16,123 nt of DNA from IMG/VR virus record IMGVR_UViG_2541047805_000004, one strand, 5' to 3'. Made by a program: the position numbers and the translations under genes. Origin of the DNA: a virus. Lineage: Duplodnaviria; Heunggongvirae; Uroviricota; Caudoviricetes. The notes under the pieces were generated by a model. The model was not told where the DNA came from and did no database searches. It saw only the letters and a program-made list of their open reading frames with translations. How positions within the stretch are numbered: the stretch's first letter is position 1; the number at the start of each line of letters is the position of its first letter. Of this stretch, positions 1 through 15,565 are shown piece after piece.

Positions 1-662
1 TCACTCTGCCAGATGGCGCAATGCCATCTGGTATCACTTAAAGGTATTAAAAACAACTTTTTGTCTTTTTACCTTCCCGTTTCGCTCAAGTTAGTATAAA
101 AAAGTTGAATGTGAAACGGTAAAAACAATTAATATCAACGGCTTATAATTGATTCAGTCTAAAAAATAGACTGCAAAACGCGACAAAACACAACATATCC
201 AGTCACTATGAATCAACTACTTAGATGGTATTAGTGACCTGTAACAGAGCATTAGCGCAAGGTGATTTTTGTCTTCTTGCGCTAATTTTTTGTCGTAAAA
301 TCGGTAACGTCTGGAAATCATTCAATACTCGCACTATCGGAAGTTCACCAGCCAGCCGCAGCACGTTATTGCATACAACGTGCTGCGGCATAAAACCAAT
401 GATTATTCCTTCCCGCACATGACATACCGCGACTTTATTTATCCCCAGCAGGAAATTTTTCATACAACTTCGACCCACCAACATCACAGGTAATCGTTCC
501 GCCTGTGTATTCTCGCGCCAACATCTACCACAATTTGTTTTCTTAGGATTGTAGTCACTCTTCTGGTTGTTTCACATAATAACTTGTATACTTCAGATAG
601 TATTCATAACCTCAAACTATTTAATGTATAAATTAGATCTGAAAGTTTAGGAAAGATTTTCT

Positions 663-1382
663 ATGTTGATCGTTTCTGTACTACGCTGCGGCAAGGATTT
701 TACGCCGAAACATGCACAATGGCTTCATAAACAATTTGGTTCAATGCCCTCAATCTGCTTGACTGATGCTGGAAGTATTGATGGTGTGAATACTGCACCT
801 TTGTTATTTGATTGGCCTGGTTGGTGGTCAAAAATGGAGTTATTTAACCCAAACCATCCAGTAATCGGGAATCATGACATTTTATATTTTGACATAGATG
901 TTGTCATTACTGGAAAATTGGATATTTTTACAAAAGCTAAAAATTTTACCATGCTCAGGGAGTTTAATCATCATGACCGTGTTAACTCCTCAATTATGAT
1001 GATTCCCGTTTCTGCAAAGACAAAAATATGGGAGGAATTTACTGCCAATCCTGAACAAATAATGCAAGAATGCAAAACTGAAGATAAATGGGGTGATCAA
1101 GGTTTTATCGGTAGTGTTACTAAGCCAGACTTATGGCAGGACATTATTCCAGATGCAATTAAAAGTTATAAATGCGATATAGCAACAAAATCAATGATTG
1201 GATACAATCCAGACCTGGCATCAAAATCAGCAACTGGGAAAGTACCTGACAGTGTTTCAGTTGTGTGTTTTCACGGTAGTCCACGCCCCTGGCGCACTGG
1301 TTTTAACTGGGTTCCATCTTTTTCTTTAAAAGATACGCTTTATGGCAAAGTAAAAAATCTCAAATTAAAGGTTAAAGGTTAA
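663..1382 (+). CDS. Putative glycosyltransferase, GT8 family-like (LgtC/RfaJ-like retaining glycosyltransferase); low-GC moron
   Basis: 239-aa ORF with ATG at 663 preceded by AGGAAAG about 8 nt upstream. The translation has, in the canonical GT8 order, an N-terminal hydrophobic strand (MLIVSVL), a DxD motif in hydrophobic context (ILYFDIDVVI, cf. LgtC VLYLDIDVLV), NSSIMMIPV...KIW (cf. NAGVLLINLKKW), GDQGFIGSV (cf. QDQDILN) and CFHGSPRPW (cf. HYCGPAKPW). The region is AT-rich relative to the lambda-like flanks. Function is inferred from motifs only. Confidence 0.5.
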   Translation: MLIVSVLRCGKDFTPKHAQWLHKQFGSMPSICLTDAGSIDGVNTAPLLFDWPGWWSKMELFNPNHPVIGNHDILYFDIDVVITGKLDIFTKAKNFTMLREFNHHDRVNSSIMMIPVSAKTKIWEEFTANPEQIMQECKTEDKWGDQGFIGSVTKPDLWQDIIPDAIKSYKCDIATKSMIGYNPDLASKSATGKVPDSVSVVCFHGSPRPWRTGFNWVPSFSLKDTLYGKVKNLKLKVKG

Positions 1383-1390
1383 AGGTTAAA
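1365..1390. repeat. Tandem heptamer repeat (TTAAAGG x3 plus partial unit) spanning the stop codon of the glycosyltransferase-like ORF
   Basis: Direct reading: ttaaagg ttaaagg ttaaagg ttaaa at 1365-1390. It encodes the C-terminal KLKVKG tail and contains the TAA stop at 1380-1382. Confidence 0.8.
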
Positions 1391-1395
1391 ATCAT

Positions 1396-1418
1396 AACCA
1401 CTCGCATAGCGGGTGGTT
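1396..1418. terminator. Stem-loop between convergent genes (possible bidirectional terminator) at the terminase truncation junction
   Basis: aaccactcgc ATA gcgggtggtt forms a roughly 10-bp stem (one G-U) with a 3-nt loop. It lies between the 3' ends of the + strand ORF (stop 1382) and the truncated terminase (stop 1458). The flanking T/A runs are modest. Confidence 0.35.
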
Positions 1419-1457
1419 ATCTGTCTCAGCCACGATACGCCTGAAACTGGCTTTAAG

Positions 1458-2048
1458 TCAGCAATAATAAAAGGAGTAAATCCTTCCGTTATCCTCATCA
1501 AAGGCAGCAAGTTCATCATAACCCGCCACATCCACCGACTTTTCACGGTAGTTTTTTGCCGCTTTACCGCCCAGGCACCAGAAGCCACGCCCATTGGTGA
1601 AACGCTTCATGGTGAGCGTGTTATCCCGGTGCTTTTTGCCATACCACGGGGCCAGCGCAAGCAGCGAAGGAATATCGCGGATGGTCGGCTCAACGTGGGT
1701 TTTCATAAAGTTCTCGGCATCACCATCCGTCGGCAACCAGATAAGGGTGTTGCGCTGCTTATGCTCTATGAAGTAGGCATAAACACCCAGCAGCATTTTG
1801 GAATAACCAACACGGGCAGACTTCACCACATTCACCTCGCGGACGTAGTCACTGCCCATCGCATTCATGATGGCCCGCTGAAAGGGCAGTGTTTCCCAGC
1901 GCCCTTCCTGGTATGCGGATTCTTTCGGGAGATAATAATTGGCATCCGCCCATTCAACGGCGGTCTGTGGCTCCGGCCTGAACAGTGAGCGAAGCCCGGC
2001 GCGGACAAAATGCCGCAGCCTGTTAACCTGACTGTTCGATATATTCAC
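1458..2048 (-). pseudogene. A: Terminase large subunit (lambda gpA-like), N-terminal fragment only; truncated
   Basis: The translation MNISNSQVNRLRHFVRAGLRSLF...KSVDVAGYDELAAFD matches my recollection of the lambda gpA N-terminus for about 183 residues, then diverges (EDNGRIYSFYYC-stop). Start is GTG at 2048, overlapping the Nu1 3' end as in lambda. The homology breakpoint is near 1495. Full-length gpA is about 640 aa, so the ATPase/nuclease regions are missing. Confidence 0.85.
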
Positions 2049-2568
2049 TCAGCAACCCCGGTATCAGTTCATCCAGCGCGGCTGCTTTGTTCATGGCTTT
2101 GATGATATCCCGTTTCAGGAAATCAACATGTCGGTTTTCCAGTTCCGGAAAACGCCGCTGCACCGACAGGGGGATCCCGTCGAGAATACTGGCAATTTCA
2201 CCTGCGATCCGCGACAGCACGAAAGTACAGAATGCGGTTTCCACCACTTCAGCGGAGTCTCTGGCATTTTTCAGCTCCTGTGCGTCGGCCTGTGCACGCG
2301 TAAGTCGATGGCGTTCGTACTCAATAGTCCCTGGCTGGAGATCTGCCTCGCTGGCCTGCCGCAGTTCTTCAACCTCCCGGCGCAGCTTTTCGTTCTCAAT
2401 TTCAGCATCCCTTTCGGCATACCATTTTATAACGGCGGCAGAGTCATAAAGCACCTCATTACCCTTGCCACCGCCTCGCAGAACGGGCATTCCCTGTTCC
2501 TGCCAGTTCTGAATGGTACGGATACTCGCACCGAAAATGTCAGCCAGCTGCTTTTTGTTGACTTCCAT
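2023..2568 (-). CDS. nohD: Terminase small subunit (lambda Nu1-like)
   Basis: 181-aa ORF MEVNKKQLADIFGASIRTIQNWQEQGMPVLRGGGKGNEVLYDSAAVIKWYAERDAEIENEKLRREVEELRQ..., which I recognise as the lambda Nu1 sequence (winged-HTH N-terminus). ATG at 2568; it sits immediately downstream of cos, as in lambda. Confidence 0.9.
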   Translation of the reverse strand: MEVNKKQLADIFGASIRTIQNWQEQGMPVLRGGGKGNEVLYDSAAVIKWYAERDAEIENEKLRREVEELRQASEADLQPGTIEYERHRLTRAQADAQELKNARDSAEVVETAFCTFVLSRIAGEIASILDGIPLSVQRRFPELENRHVDFLKRDIIKAMNKAAALDELIPGLLSEYIEQSG

Positions 2569-6594: not shown

Positions 6595-7677
6595 ATGAAA
6601 AAATTAACAGTGGCAATTTCTGCTGTAGCTGCATCAGTACTGATGGCGATGTCTGCTCAGGCAGCTGAAATTTATAATAAAGACAGTAACAAGCTGGATC
6701 TGTACGGGAAAGTTAATGCTAAGCACTACTTCTCCTCTAATGATGCAGATGATGGTGATACTACTTATGCCCGTCTTGGCTTCAAAGGTGAAACCCAAAT
6801 CAACGATCAACTGACTGGTTTCGGTCAGTGGGAATATGAATTCAAAGGCAACCGCGCTGAATCTCAAGGTTCCTCCAAAGATAAAACCCGTCTTGCCTTC
6901 GCTGGCCTGAAATTCGGTGACTACGGCTCCATCGATTACGGCCGTAACTACGGTGTAGCATACGACATCGGTGCGTGGACTGACGTCCTGCCAGAATTCG
7001 GTGGTGACACTTGGACTCAAACAGATGTGTTCATGACTGGTCGCACCACTGGTGTTGCAACTTATCGTAACAACGACTTCTTTGGTCTGGTTGATGGTCT
7101 GAACTTTGCTGCTCAGTATCAGGGTAAAAATGACCGCACTGACGTAACTGAAGCTAATGGTGATGGTTTCGGTTTCTCCACTACTTATGAGTATGAAGGA
7201 TTCGGTGTAGGTGCAACCTATGCTAAATCTGATCGCACTAATAATCAGGTTATCTACGGTAACAACGGTCTGAATGCTTCTGGTCAAAATGCTGAAGTAT
7301 GGGCAGCTGGTCTGAAATATGATGCGAACAACATCTATCTGGCCACCACCTATTCTGAAACCCAGAACATGACTGTTTTTGGTAATAACCATATTGCCAA
7401 CAAAGCACAAAACTTCGAAGCTGTTGCACAATATCAGTTCGACTTCGGCCTGCGTCCATCCGTTGCTTACCTGCATTCTAAAGGAAAAGACTTGGGTGTT
7501 TGGGGTGATCAGGACCTGGTTGAATATGTTGATGTAGGTGCAACCTATTACTTCAACAAAAATATGTCCACTTTTGTTGACTACAAAATCAACCTGATTG
7601 ATAAGAGCGATTTCACGAAAGCATCTGGCGTTGCTACCGATGATATCGTTGCTGTAGGTATGGTTTACCAGTTCTAA
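6595..7677 (+). CDS. nmpC: OmpC/OmpF-family general porin (NmpC/OmpD-like), apparently intact
   Basis: 360-aa ORF with signal peptide [23 protein letters not shown]|AEIYNKD, porin hallmarks throughout, and a C-terminal aromatic residue (…VYQF). AAGGG RBS before the ATG at 6595. It lies between Q and the holin on the opposite strand, the position of nmpC in DLP12. Confidence 0.9.
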
Positions 7678-10760: not shown

Positions 10761-11312
10761 CTACTTTATCTCATAAACTGGTGTTATCTCAGCGGTTGCG
10801 ATTTTATTAGCATTAAGCATATAACCAACTAACGCTCCGCTGGAGTTAGAATCTACAGGAATCTTTTCAGTTTTTAGAGCCCATACTTTAAACTGGTAAT
10901 GATGTGGTTTATCTCCTTTAGGAGGACATGCGCCACCAAACCCAGCATAGCCAAAATCATTTCGGCCTTGAACAGCACCAGTCGGCAGTTTTGTTCCATC
11001 ACGTCTCCCTGCATCAACGGGCAAATATGTTATTGTTGCTGGAATATTAACAACAGTCCAATGCCACCAACCACTGCCTGTAGGTGCATCTGGATCATAT
11101 ACAGTTACGGCAAAGCTTTTGGTACCTTCAGGAACACCAGACCAGGTTAATGAGGGCGATGTATTACCACCTTCACACCCAAATCCAGAAAAGACATGAG
11201 ACGTTGTAAGTTGCTCTCCTGTTTTTATTTCATTACTAGTGACCTGAAATGCTGCAGCCTGCGCAGAAAATGTTATGAATGCCAATACAGTTGAAACGAT
11301 AAGTGTTTTCAT
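10761..11312 (-). CDS. ybcL: Periplasmic PEBP/RKIP-family protein (YbcL-like)
   Basis: 183-aa ORF with signal peptide MKTLIVSTVLAFITFSAQA|AAFQ. It has the PEBP-like motif region ...VYDPDAPTGSGWWHW...HHYQFKVWAL. AAGAGG RBS. It is 10 bp upstream of ybcM in the same orientation, so the two probably form an operon. Confidence 0.85.
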   Translation of the reverse strand: MKTLIVSTVLAFITFSAQAAAFQVTSNEIKTGEQLTTSHVFSGFGCEGGNTSPSLTWSGVPEGTKSFAVTVYDPDAPTGSGWWHWTVVNIPATITYLPVDAGRRDGTKLPTGAVQGRNDFGYAGFGGACPPKGDKPHHYQFKVWALKTEKIPVDSNSSGALVGYMLNANKIATAEITPVYEIK

Positions 11313-11528
11313 AAAAACCTCTTTGTTATGACCTATCGTTATTTTATTTGATATTCCTTTATCTCATTATGCATAAAGGCGCAATGTTTATGCAAAAGCA
11401 ATCACAATTGTACCCCCAACCCAATTATTTGCCACAATATACACAAAGCACATTGATACTATCTAAAAACTCTGCTTTATTATTAGTAATACCTACGAAA
11501 GTCGGTGTTATTTTTTAACCTACCATTC

Positions 11529-11578
11529 AAAATACGTGACATACACCATTTTGCTCATAATAATTTGTCACGTATTTT
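11529..11578. repeat. 50-bp element: perfect 13-bp inverted repeats (AAAATACGTGACA / TGTCACGTATTTT) flanking a 24-bp AT-rich spacer
   Basis: Read directly from the sequence: 11529-11541 and 11566-11578 are exact reverse complements. It lies in the intergenic region between the ybcK stop (11777) and the ybcL start (11312). Confidence 0.8.
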
Positions 11579-11776
11579 CAGTATTTGAATCTGCGACCAA
11601 GAGTTCTCACCTAACAAATGATTAAGATTGTATAGCTCATTTACTACCCCAATACAGCCGTACAAAACTCGCTTGTGGGAGCAAACAAAGTAATTACCCA
11701 TTAAGTTTCGTCAAAGATAATTAATTCTGTCTTGCACTTTATCACCATAGCATAACTTAAAATCCGAGATCATTAT

Positions 11777-13303
11777 TTAGAAATAAATCTCACCATCAAC
11801 CATATATTTGAGAGCACTTATCGCCTGCTGGGCGGATATTACTTTCATTAAAGGATAGTGTTTAAAAACAATGCCATTCATAAAATAGATATCACAGGTT
11901 TTATTATCCGTATTAATTATGATTTTTTCGAATGTTTTATAGGCAAGTGTACGGCATAACTCTCGTCCATTTTTACTGGTTAAGTCAATAGCATAAAAAT
12001 CACTGAATGAATTTACACCTTTACTCTTCAAAGTTTTCAATGATACCGAAGCCCTTCGTAATTCCTTATCTAATAGTCTTATTTTCTCTGCTATAGCGGT
12101 AACTTCAGGCGCGACAGACAATGCAACGATTAAATTATTAATTTTCATCTGAAGCTCAATAATTTTTAACTCTAAAGTTTCATTAGCATCTTTCTTGTTT
12201 TCAACTGGTTGAATTTTGCTACAATTAAAAAGCAATTCATTAATGATATTATAATCAACCAAATCTCTTTTTATTGATGGCCTGTCACATCGATGTAATC
12301 TTCTCATCGGACAAACATAATAGCCATGCAAACTTCCAGATACCGCATGAACAATCATGGTATTACCACAAGCCTCACACTTCATAACTGTTCGAAGTAG
12401 ATTTATTAGCATAGGATTCTTGCTACTATTGCTAATACCAAAAGGTGCCAACCGAATTTCCTGTACAGCGTAAAACAAATCATCTGATATAACTCTGGGA
12501 TAATAGCCAGCGATTTCACTTATCCCTTTCCCTCTTGCACGATATGAAGGTACGCATATACCTATCAGAGCTTTATTCGCTAATAATTTTTCAATTACAG
12601 AAGGTCCCCATGCACTTTCTTTTCCTGAGAAATTCTTTACAGCATGATCATTTAAATACTTGGCTATTGCATTCAATGAGCGCCTTTCCATCCTGAGTTT
12701 AAAAATTAGCTCAATAGTTTTCACCCTGTCGGGGTCTGGAACAAAAGCCGTTCTTTTGTCATCTAAGGAGAGCCATCTCGGACAAGACGCCGTCATAATC
12801 GTACCTGATTCCATTGCATCCTGCCGTTTTTTCTTCCATGATAATTTAACCCGACTTGACTTTATCTCGCTTTCTTCATTTGCCCTTTGTGCTATAAGTA
12901 TGGCTTTTATTAATGAATATGGCTCATTCAAAGAGTCAATATTATAGACTGTATTGTCGCAAAGAGTTATAACATCAATACCGTGATTCAAAATCAATTT
13001 CAGACGTTCAATCGCTTCACCGACTTTTTCTCTTGAAAGTCTGTCCAGACTTTCAACTAACAATGTAGTTCCTGGCAATATATAACCATGCTCTATAGCA
13101 TCTAAAAATTCCGAAAAAGCTCCTGATTGTGCATGCTTTCCTTTGAATGCACTTAATCCTAAATCTTCATATGTTATGGTATCAAGATAATAATCACTAT
13201 TTACCTTTAACCATTCAGCAATAAGTCTTCTCTGTCGGTTTAATGAGTCACCAGACATCTGACCTGGTGATGAAAATCGCATATATGCTATGGCTTTTTT
13301 CAT
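11777..13303 (-). CDS. ybcK: Large serine recombinase (resolvase/invertase N-terminal catalytic domain plus recombinase and zinc-ribbon domains)
   Basis: 508-aa ORF. N-terminus AIAYMRFSSPGQ (catalytic Ser context) and LVESLDRLSRE (resolvase motif); a C-terminal Cys cluster (CEACGNTM...YYVCPMRRLHRCD) followed by a coiled-coil-like region. Very low GC. ATG at 13303 with AGGTG RBS. Confidence 0.85.
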   Translation of the reverse strand: MKKAIAYMRFSSPGQMSGDSLNRQRRLIAEWLKVNSDYYLDTITYEDLGLSAFKGKHAQSGAFSEFLDAIEHGYILPGTTLLVESLDRLSREKVGEAIERLKLILNHGIDVITLCDNTVYNIDSLNEPYSLIKAILIAQRANEESEIKSSRVKLSWKKKRQDAMESGTIMTASCPRWLSLDDKRTAFVPDPDRVKTIELIFKLRMERRSLNAIAKYLNDHAVKNFSGKESAWGPSVIEKLLANKALIGICVPSYRARGKGISEIAGYYPRVISDDLFYAVQEIRLAPFGISNSSKNPMLINLLRTVMKCEACGNTMIVHAVSGSLHGYYVCPMRRLHRCDRPSIKRDLVDYNIINELLFNCSKIQPVENKKDANETLELKIIELQMKINNLIVALSVAPEVTAIAEKIRLLDKELRRASVSLKTLKSKGVNSFSDFYAIDLTSKNGRELCRTLAYKTFEKIIINTDNKTCDIYFMNGIVFKHYPLMKVISAQQAISALKYMVDGEIYF

Positions 13304-15425: not shown

Positions 15426-15565
15426 CTGATTCGGGTAAACGCCTTTACCCCAGCTTCGGCTTCGCGGAGAATACTGATGATCTGTTCGTCGGAAAAACGC
15501 TTCTTCATGGGGATGTCCTCATGTGGCTTATGAAGACATTACTAACATCGGGGTGTACTAATCAA
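15422..15565 (-). mobile_element. Remnant of an IS3-family insertion sequence (left end plus the first ~21 codons of the transposase OrfA) at the int/O deletion junction
   Basis: The minus-strand ATG at 15508 encodes MKKRFSDEQIISILREAEAGV..., a typical N-terminus of IS3-family OrfA (HTH_Tnp_1) proteins. The frame then hits a stop after 28 codons, where the sequence becomes the lambda ori region. About 55 bp upstream of the ATG, a TGATTAG... sequence is consistent with an IS terminus. Boundaries are approximate. Confidence 0.35.

Follow-up and report, generated by a model that had tools for sequence, protein, structure and literature searches.

The stretch of DNA analysed here, virus record IMGVR_UViG_2541047805_000004 of IMG/VR (16,123 nucleotides; hereafter the window), holds what is left, over 16 kb, of a lambda-type prophage that entered the chromosome of Escherichia coli at the lambda attachment site. 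Near one end it carries an intact gene for a 239-residue glycosyltransferase (GT), the subject of this work. We find that this gene occupies its original place, the b region of a lambdoid prophage, and that the head, tail and fibre genes were lost through nested deletions. The enzyme belongs to the family of P1 PmgQ, whose members nearest to it outside phages lie in loci for the core of lipopolysaccharide (LPS), in the company of waaL, waaC/waaF and genes for WaaZ-like transferases of 3-deoxy-D-manno-oct-2-ulosonic acid (Kdo). Because of these relatives, modification of the LPS core is the best-supported function, and we give the LPS core a probability of roughly one half of being the acceptor.

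A GT8-like enzyme outside the Pfam GT8 family

An earlier reading made from the letters of the window without database searches (the sequence-only reading) had recognised the open reading frame (ORF) in low-GC DNA beside a breakpoint in the terminase gene, and we confirm it (Table 1). The product matches PHROG 1962 ('glycosyltransferase') over its full length (E = 4e-76; residues 1–225 on profile positions 1–226 of 230). Among 5.8 billion proteins we found 390 relatives, nearly all unnamed, and from 85 of these we built a family profile and alignment. Out of 1.84 billion, this profile picked up 5,415 cluster representatives with E ≤ 1e-3; for 1,380 of them E was 1e-30 or lower. Among solved structures it matched, by sequence, the GT8 enzymes Gat1 (2.6e-7), glycogenin-1 (8e-6) and GlyE (8.5e-3). 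The AlphaFold model of the protein has a pLDDT of 97.1, the fold is GT-A, and the closest solved structures by profile and by fold are all GT8 enzymes.

General libraries returned little. An hmmscan of the 239-residue protein against Pfam-A found no family even at E ≤ 10, so the search with the Glyco_transf_8 profile (PF01501) that the sequence-only reading had proposed as a check came back empty; among the 85 homologs, 16 match PF01501, all below threshold (best E = 0.0023). There was no match in NCBIfam and no family at E ≤ 1 among the PADLOC defence-system models, and a single-sequence search of PDB sequences gave chance matches only.

The residues that are invariant or nearly so in the 85 homologs are K57, D77-x-D79, N108-S109, G144-D145-Q146 and F203-H204-G205-x-P207-x-P209-W210, with K57, D77, D79, G144, D145, F203, H204, G205, P207 and P209 among the invariant ones. 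All 14 family-invariant residues are kept in the window protein. The family blocks match the Lys, D-A-D, G-D-Q-G and G-x-x-K-P-W of glycogenin and the corresponding blocks of Gat1 and of RfaJ-like GT8 enzymes, with D77-I-D79 and G144-D145-Q146-G147 aligned to D-A-D and G-D-Q-G of glycogenin. The four GT8 motif blocks noted by the sequence-only reading are therefore present and conserved, but the last does not have the form given there. It reads C-F-H-G-x-P-R-P-W (C202-F-H204-G-S-P-R-P-W in this protein), and in profile alignments to glycogenin and to an RfaJ-like GT8 enzyme the canonical GT8 His, the third metal ligand, falls opposite Cys202. At least 90% of homologs share this Cys, and the invariant His204 follows two positions after it.

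The window protein thus shares fold and motifs with the GT8 enzymes LgtC, WaaI/J/R/T/O, glycogenin, Gat1 and GlyE, but differs from them in its low identity (12–15%), its shifted His, the absence of a GT8C domain and its length, which as previously remarked is below that of LgtC-type enzymes (about 60–100 residues shorter than LgtC or WaaJ). On its sequence we class it as a GT8-like GT-A enzyme of a large and mostly phage-borne sister family that the Pfam GT8 model misses. The assignment to GT8 accordingly holds as a nearest relationship by profile and by fold, and not as membership by the Pfam definition, the protein falling below the curated GT8 threshold.

Members of the same family with a name are P1 PmgQ and P7 HdmD (tblastn to pmgQ: 36% identity, 92% coverage, E = 8e-32). 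Literature searches found no functional study of the PmgQ-type family. In a CRISPR interference (CRISPRi) screen P1 pmgQ was dispensable for plaque formation (PMC10695390), a result that is uninformative on its target. In some members of the family the GT domain is present twice in tandem (for example P0124 with 667 aa, P0131 with 504 aa and P0237 with 749 aa).

Relatives in LPS-core loci

In Klebsiella, Raoultella, Morganella, Rosenbergiella, Halomonas and Pectobacterium, family members with 40–49% identity to the window protein lie within waa/LPS-core clusters, where their usual partner is a WaaZ-like Kdo transferase, waaL or both. In Klebsiella sp. I138 the homolog (42% identical, E = 3e-52) stands in the order waaA–GT2–GT4–GT4 / 502 aa–GT homolog–O-antigen ligase (Wzy_C) / WaaZ-like–RfaC–RfaF–hldD. 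The domain matches here are to Wzy_C (2e-14), to TIGR04437 for the WaaZ-like protein (7e-21), to RfaC (5e-180) and to RfaF (2.5e-222), whereas the labels waaA, hldD, GT2 and GT4 were read from N-terminal sequences without a domain search. Morganella morganii has the same pairing of the GT with waaL together with a WaaZ-like gene (2.5e-16). A systematic scan showed the same pattern for Raoultella and other Klebsiella, with a PF01973-like gene on the other strand some 1.25 kb further downstream. In Rosenbergiella the order is GT–waaL with a Sulfatase-family protein (PF00884) nearby, likely a phosphoethanolamine transferase. Halomonas cupida has Ugd–epimerase–GT followed by a bona fide WaaZ, and Pectobacterium sp. 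B1J-3 has a Sulfatase-family gene, a canonical GT8+GT8C enzyme (5e-46), a WaaZ-like gene (2.6e-22), the GT homolog (48.6% identical) and a GT25 gene. The chromosomal partners (locus L035, 7902–8810; L085, 7910–8809; L030, 5058–5990; L031, 6725–7516) match the TIGR04437 model of Kdo III transferases, with only the Halomonas protein (211 bits) above its cut-off.

A rough neighbour-joining tree, which carries no support values, places the Pectobacterium gene as the sister of the clade of the window protein (the query clade), with the waa-cluster genes next and P1 PmgQ farther away. The waa-locus homologs, most of which are without the basic C-terminal tail described below, are in this tree the closest non-phage branches to the query clade. 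Intact solitary copies with no phage genes nearby occur in two Vitreoscilla species and in Shimwellia. Literature searches found no named or characterised member among the waa-cluster homologs. Rhizobium LpcA/LpcB were considered as characterised relatives and rejected, as the Rhizobium loci do not have such a context and the literature was uninformative. LPS-core modification, one of three roles offered by the sequence-only reading, hence gains independent support from relatives inside waa/LPS-core clusters.

A cargo gene at its native site

The sequence-only reading took the GT gene to sit where the structural genes of the prophage should be. It does not. The free phage Chlobot carries the identical gene (100% over residues 1–227 by tblastn, and 100% over 239 aa for the ORF at the locus) in the order J–lom–stf–tfa–GT (opposite strand)–two small ORFs–int–xis. 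This site, between tfa and int, is the lambda b region adjoining attP. The E. coli strains AJ1, ES5 and GDSC2227PM have it between attR/ybhB and tfa, and in four E. coli genomes it adjoins attR and ybhB. Because the same gene order with tfa is seen in Chlobot and in the E. coli relatives, the puzzling position of the gene in the window is an artefact of deletion.

Comparison with strain SW070917 reveals the deletions themselves. The window is 99.98–100% identical to that strain, less two segments (L007, 1989–4432 and 18392–26168). At base level, the first deletion extends from about codon 187 of the terminase gene as far as the stop codon of tfa, which is retained (Table 1). The breakpoint that had been put at about 1495 is thus correctly recognised, and lies exactly at 1492/1493. 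At the second junction (15446–15449) the replication region is joined to the interior of an ISSen4 copy with TACC microhomology, and some 120 bp of the ISSen4 insertion, which both share, is retained beside the integrase remnant. SW070917 also has an IS1 with a 9-bp target duplication beside the GT gene, at the equivalent of window positions 1480–1488. The window is without this IS1 and keeps four more bases of tfa, and for these reasons the IS1 must be a later insertion in SW070917 and an IS1-mediated deletion at the first junction is ruled out.

The identical gene in the b region of a free phage bears out the earlier suggestion that the GT is phage cargo, and its other properties are those of a moron. 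It lies at a module boundary, its GC content is about 0.35 (0.34–0.37, or ~35%) against about 0.5 in the flanks (0.51–0.55 in the adjoining terminase DNA), a hairpin comes after its stop codon, and the allele is present in 5 of 5,426 complete E. coli genomes, these copies being 99–100% identical. A copy with 91% identity is in a P2-like prophage, and the DNA match to it runs from about 100 bp 5′ of the ATG to the stop codon.

Phage neighbourhoods and partner enzymes

We collected 183 loci and scored neighbouring genes with profiles seeded on known Tfa and on PmgO/PmgP-like proteins, counting only non-redundant sequences for which 2 kb or more of DNA was available to either side. All 13 sequences of the clade with at least 53% identity to the query have the basic tail, and 8 have tfa within 2 kb and none a PF01973-like gene. 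Among the 110 sequences with at most 51% identity, 6 have the basic tail, none has tfa within 2 kb and 80 have a PF01973-like gene within that distance, mostly directly upstream on the same strand. The cases next to tfa are found in lambdoid siphoviruses, P2-like myoviruses and another myovirus type, in both orientations. In these prophages the query clade directly adjoins tail fibre and Caudo_TAP genes on either strand.

In P1 itself, both pmgO and pmgP (L014, 3144–5702) have weak similarity to PF01973 (MptE-like), and pmgO/pmgP/ppp/pmgQ looks like a three-enzyme glycosylation cassette among 'putative morphogenetic' genes. PmgQ differs from the window protein in being without the polybasic tail, and its operon, with the two weakly PF01973-like genes and a phosphatase, is away from the tail-fibre genes. 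Homology to WaaZ of PmgO, PmgP and the other phage partners was not found with the NCBIfam WaaZ model, nor in a strict two-round jackhmmer search started from chromosomal WaaZ-like proteins. The link between phage and chromosomal partners comes from a looser three-round search and from the weak PF01973 similarity that they share, and as the strict iterative search does not connect them their homology is remote. Among family members of about 400 aa, a PF01973 match is recorded for P0094 and P0096, and the domain is N-terminal in P0094 and C-terminal in P0123. Such GT/PF01973 fusions are consistent with functional coupling of the two enzymes.

A polybasic C-terminal tail

The catalytic core is followed by a 21-residue C-terminal extension (residues 219–239, FSLKDTLYGKVKNLKLKVKG) with a net charge of +5. 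The tail is found in every member of the enterobacterial clade (identity at least 48%), with net charges of +3 to +9, and is not found in most of the family. This clade-specific feature casts doubt on the earlier statement that the protein has no membrane-association tail. Because its helical hydrophobic moment is low (0.11), the tail is to be regarded as polybasic and a classical amphipathic membrane helix is ruled out; it may bind the membrane electrostatically.

Alternative acceptors

The most economical reading of these data is that the family acts on the LPS core and is carried as cargo by temperate phages, with the query clade a stand-alone version that moves with tail-fibre modules. Several observations weigh against it. 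The LPS acceptor is proposed from gene neighbourhood, in a family with no characterised member, and the tree that ranks the waa-locus genes as nearest relatives has no branch support. The tail is polybasic and does not form a classical amphipathic helix, so membrane association is no more than a possibility. Expression in the lysogen would depend on a weak sigma-70-like site (TAGTCA-17-CATAAT at 552–580), the sole promoter predicted; a search for a conserved promoter upstream of the gene across contexts found conservation only with the closest copy, that of the P2-like prophage. Finally, adjacency to tail-fibre genes is expected, too, if the fibre is the acceptor, and the distant homologs, as well as some copies next to adhesin genes, are found in settings that fit other targets.

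These settings bear first on glycosylation of the virion, in which a tail fibre or other structural protein would be modified during lytic growth, as the capsids of some viruses are decorated by mycobacteriophage and chlorovirus glycosyltransferases. The constant adjacency of the query clade to tail fibre and tfa genes is in its favour. So are the positions of distant homologs, some of which are within or close to a head module and others next to large genes that resemble fibre genes. An Aestuariicella prophage has one between capsid and head–tail connector genes and beside an FkbM methyltransferase, a Rhizobium prophage has one near apparent head-module genes (labelled without a domain search), and in a jumbo phage the homolog is beside fibre-like genes, with MptE-like and Nucleotid_trans genes. 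The phiNP homolog lies between Rz and terS. In P1 the operon pmgO-pmgP-ppp-pmgQ is behind a C1 operator and downstream of a late promoter. Distant homologs in late or structural operons fit virion glycosylation as well as they fit action on LPS, and the best matches by sequence and fold include the protein-directed GT8 enzymes glycogenin, Gat1 and GlyE. However, the gene runs antisense to the late operon of lambdoid phages, it is intact in prophages that are without tail fibres, this window included, and copies at solitary non-phage sites and in waa clusters have no phage acceptor there. We consider a virion acceptor unlikely. The antisense orientation, and the intact GT in five decayed prophages that lack working fibre genes, agree instead with cargo directed at the LPS core.

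A second alternative is another glycoconjugate or protein of the host, such as the O-antigen repeat unit on its undecaprenyl carrier, enterobacterial common antigen, capsule or a surface adhesin. In a prophage of Salmonella enterica s1 (L025, 5950–7256) a 75%-identical GT precedes a gene for a hexapeptide-repeat acetyltransferase of the same orientation. Both are wedged between a tail-fibre gene and tfa, an arrangement suggestive of a two-step modification cassette adding a glycosyl and an acetyl group. In an E. albertii prophage the companion is a split GT4. Cytoplasmic hexapeptide acetyltransferases and GT4 enzymes are typical of O-antigen and capsule loci, and in waa loci the GT abuts waaL, which acts at the step linking O-antigen to core. 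In a Pseudescherichia metagenome-assembled genome (L032, 5995–7221) the GT homolog and a PF01973-like gene lie between large inverse-autotransporter genes of the invasin/intimin type with Big_1 repeats, and this context hints at an adhesin, and hence a protein, as acceptor in that branch rather than LPS. Weighed against this are the chromosomal neighbours, which are mainly core-specific (RfaC, RfaF, WaaZ-like, GT8+GT8C, GT25 and Sulfatase-family proteins), and we regard such acceptors as unlikely. The same Pseudescherichia locus has a further short ORF (11201–11758) that is PF01973-like by eye only, and the pairing of GT and PF01973-like genes recurs in L033, L043 and L045.

A third alternative, that the enzyme extends the sugar on glycosylated hydroxymethyl-pyrimidines of phage DNA, derives from the report that GT8-like phage enzymes can extend sugars on DNA containing 5-hydroxymethylcytosine (5hmC) by adding a second sugar to glucosyl-5hmC (bioRxiv 10.1101/2023.12.21.572611). 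It is extremely unlikely here. The gene persists at non-phage chromosomal loci, and no gene name of the 5-methylpyrimidine dioxygenase or thymidylate-synthase-like kind occurs among the annotated neighbours in Chlobot (a 16.7-kb stretch), P1, P2-like prophages and five E. coli prophage regions, as judged from annotation, with the window ORFs viewed by eye and no dedicated search.

The gene could also be an inactive relic with no present role in this strain, its ORF intact merely because the prophage is young. Identity among the five E. coli copies is so high that there has been too little time to test selection, the allele is rare and no strong promoter is predicted. Yet the protein keeps every family-invariant residue, and the GT ORF is intact in all five decayed E. 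coli prophages, in which J, stf and tfa are frameshifted, truncated or deleted; frameshifts, stop codons, insertion sequences (IS) and deletions have struck the neighbouring structural genes and not the GT. A relic is thus very unlikely.

The 3′ end of the gene

The sequence-only reading proposed that a tandem heptamer repeat at the end of the ORF might serve as a site of slippage or phase variation. The repeat is real and its copy number varies across related genomes, with 4.7 copies in Chlobot and ES5 and 3.7 in other relatives; the 91%-identical P2-like prophage copy has none. Starting 18 nt from the end of the ORF, it takes in the last five codons as well as the stop codon. Read in frame (TTA AAG GTT AAA GGT TAA), the stop codon falls in the third unit, so gain or loss of a unit leaves the protein unchanged: AJ1 and SW070917 (3.7 copies) and ES5 (4.7 copies) have the same annotated protein, WP_021537014.1. 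The repeat is prone to slippage, but it does not act as a phase-variation switch. Beyond it lies a hairpin with a minimum free energy of −20.2 kcal/mol (z = −3.6). A terminator scan places a terminator with a T-rich tail on the minus strand here, and the hairpin is probably the tfa terminator.

The remainder of the prophage

The boundary with the chromosome is marked by an att core that differs by a single mismatch from the lambda core GCTTTTTTATACTAA (0.01 matches expected by chance), and in four related E. coli genomes the identical att sequence comes after bioA/ybhB. The far end of the window is inside a fragment of a lambda-type integrase. Between the ends are DLP12-like genes: nohD, ylcI, ybcV, lysis genes, an ompC/nmpC-type porin gene, quuD, rusA, ybcM/L/K, emrE, ren and P. 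A longer gpA fragment is annotated in the sister strain SW070917.

Two further genes of the remnant are intact. A ybcK-type serine recombinase ORF of 508 aa (11777–13303, minus strand) is annotated as frameshifted in SW070917. The porin gene (6595–7677, plus strand; 360 aa) lies in a very AT-rich pocket, with GC content falling to 0.28 just upstream, and is a second surviving cargo gene of the prophage remnant that affects the cell surface.

Table 1. Features of the window in and around the glycosyltransferase gene
Feature	Position	Strand	Remarks
Lambda att core, attR side (ACTTTTTTATACTAA)	91..105	-	Prophage/chromosome boundary; ybhB-side host DNA to the left
AT-rich upstream region	561..662	+	Moves together with the gene (DNA match to the P2-like prophage copy); possible own promoter
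Gene for GT8-like GT-A glycosyltransferase, 239 aa	663..1382	+	ATG start; PHROG 1962, P1 PmgQ family; catalytic core residues 1–218, polybasic tail 219–239
TTAAAGG heptamer repeat	1365..1390	+	3.7 perfect copies (Tandem Repeats Finder); encodes the last residues LKVKG and the stop codon; minus-strand T-rich tract after the hairpin
12-bp hairpin (ATAACCACTCGC-ATA-GCGGGTGGTTAT)	1394..1420		Between the convergent GT and (deleted) tfa genes
Terminase large subunit, truncated	1458..2048	-	gpA N-terminal part, ~186 codons plus read-through tail; context, outside the GT unit
Deletion junction	1489..1493 (break 1492/1493)	-	tfa stop codon plus one base joined to gpA at ~codon 187; TAT microhomology; base-level comparison
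Nu1/nohD	2023..2568	-	Comes after the truncated terminase ORF

Discussion

We propose that the GT is a soluble or peripherally membrane-bound, metal-dependent GT-A enzyme which, by analogy with GT8, would transfer a sugar from a uridine diphosphate (UDP)-sugar with retention to give an alpha linkage. The acceptor that we consider most likely is the LPS core of the host or an envelope glycolipid closely akin to it, which would be modified on the cytoplasmic side of the inner membrane. The gene is carried as a moron at the tail-fibre end of temperate phage genomes, which in lambdoid phages is the b region from tfa to attP, and in this window it has outlived the deletion that took away the genes for head and tail. 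We would expect the LPS core of the lysogen to be altered as a result, which would amount to lysogenic conversion and mask the receptor of LPS-binding tail fibres.

For the family as a whole we would extend this proposal only tentatively. PmgQ-type proteins may be dedicated LPS-core remodelling enzymes, acquired by phages from bacterial waa clusters on repeated occasions. In the majority of phages, P1 included, they may work with a PF01973/WaaZ-like ulosonic-acid transferase as partner, and the enterobacterial clade would be a stand-alone form that has acquired a polybasic tail and masks core receptors.

Genes that modify a receptor are commonly found beside genes for receptor-binding proteins. 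The seroconversion cassettes GtrABC and Oac of P22 and SfV are next to attP and the tailspike or fibre genes, and change the LPS that the phage binds. The arrangement stf-tfa-GT-attP-int in Chlobot is analogous, with cargo between the gene for a receptor-binding protein and attP/int. The biochemistry is different. Gtr systems use bactoprenol-linked glucose and a periplasmic membrane transferase, and their target is the O-antigen, whereas the window encodes a single cytoplasmic GT-A enzyme of the nucleotide-sugar type, for which no membrane-spanning segment is predicted and whose relatives suggest the core as target.

If the proposal is true, it would provide a testable function, modification of the LPS core, for a very large and unannotated phage family that includes 'putative morphogenetic' genes of P1. 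It would also define a core-directed route of receptor masking by a single cytoplasmic enzyme, distinct from seroconversion by Gtr and Oac, and would matter for the host range of phages, for designing phage-therapy cocktails with regard to LPS-binding phages, and for LPS core typing. In the case of this window, a defective prophage retains an intact cargo gene that may still alter the surface of the cell.

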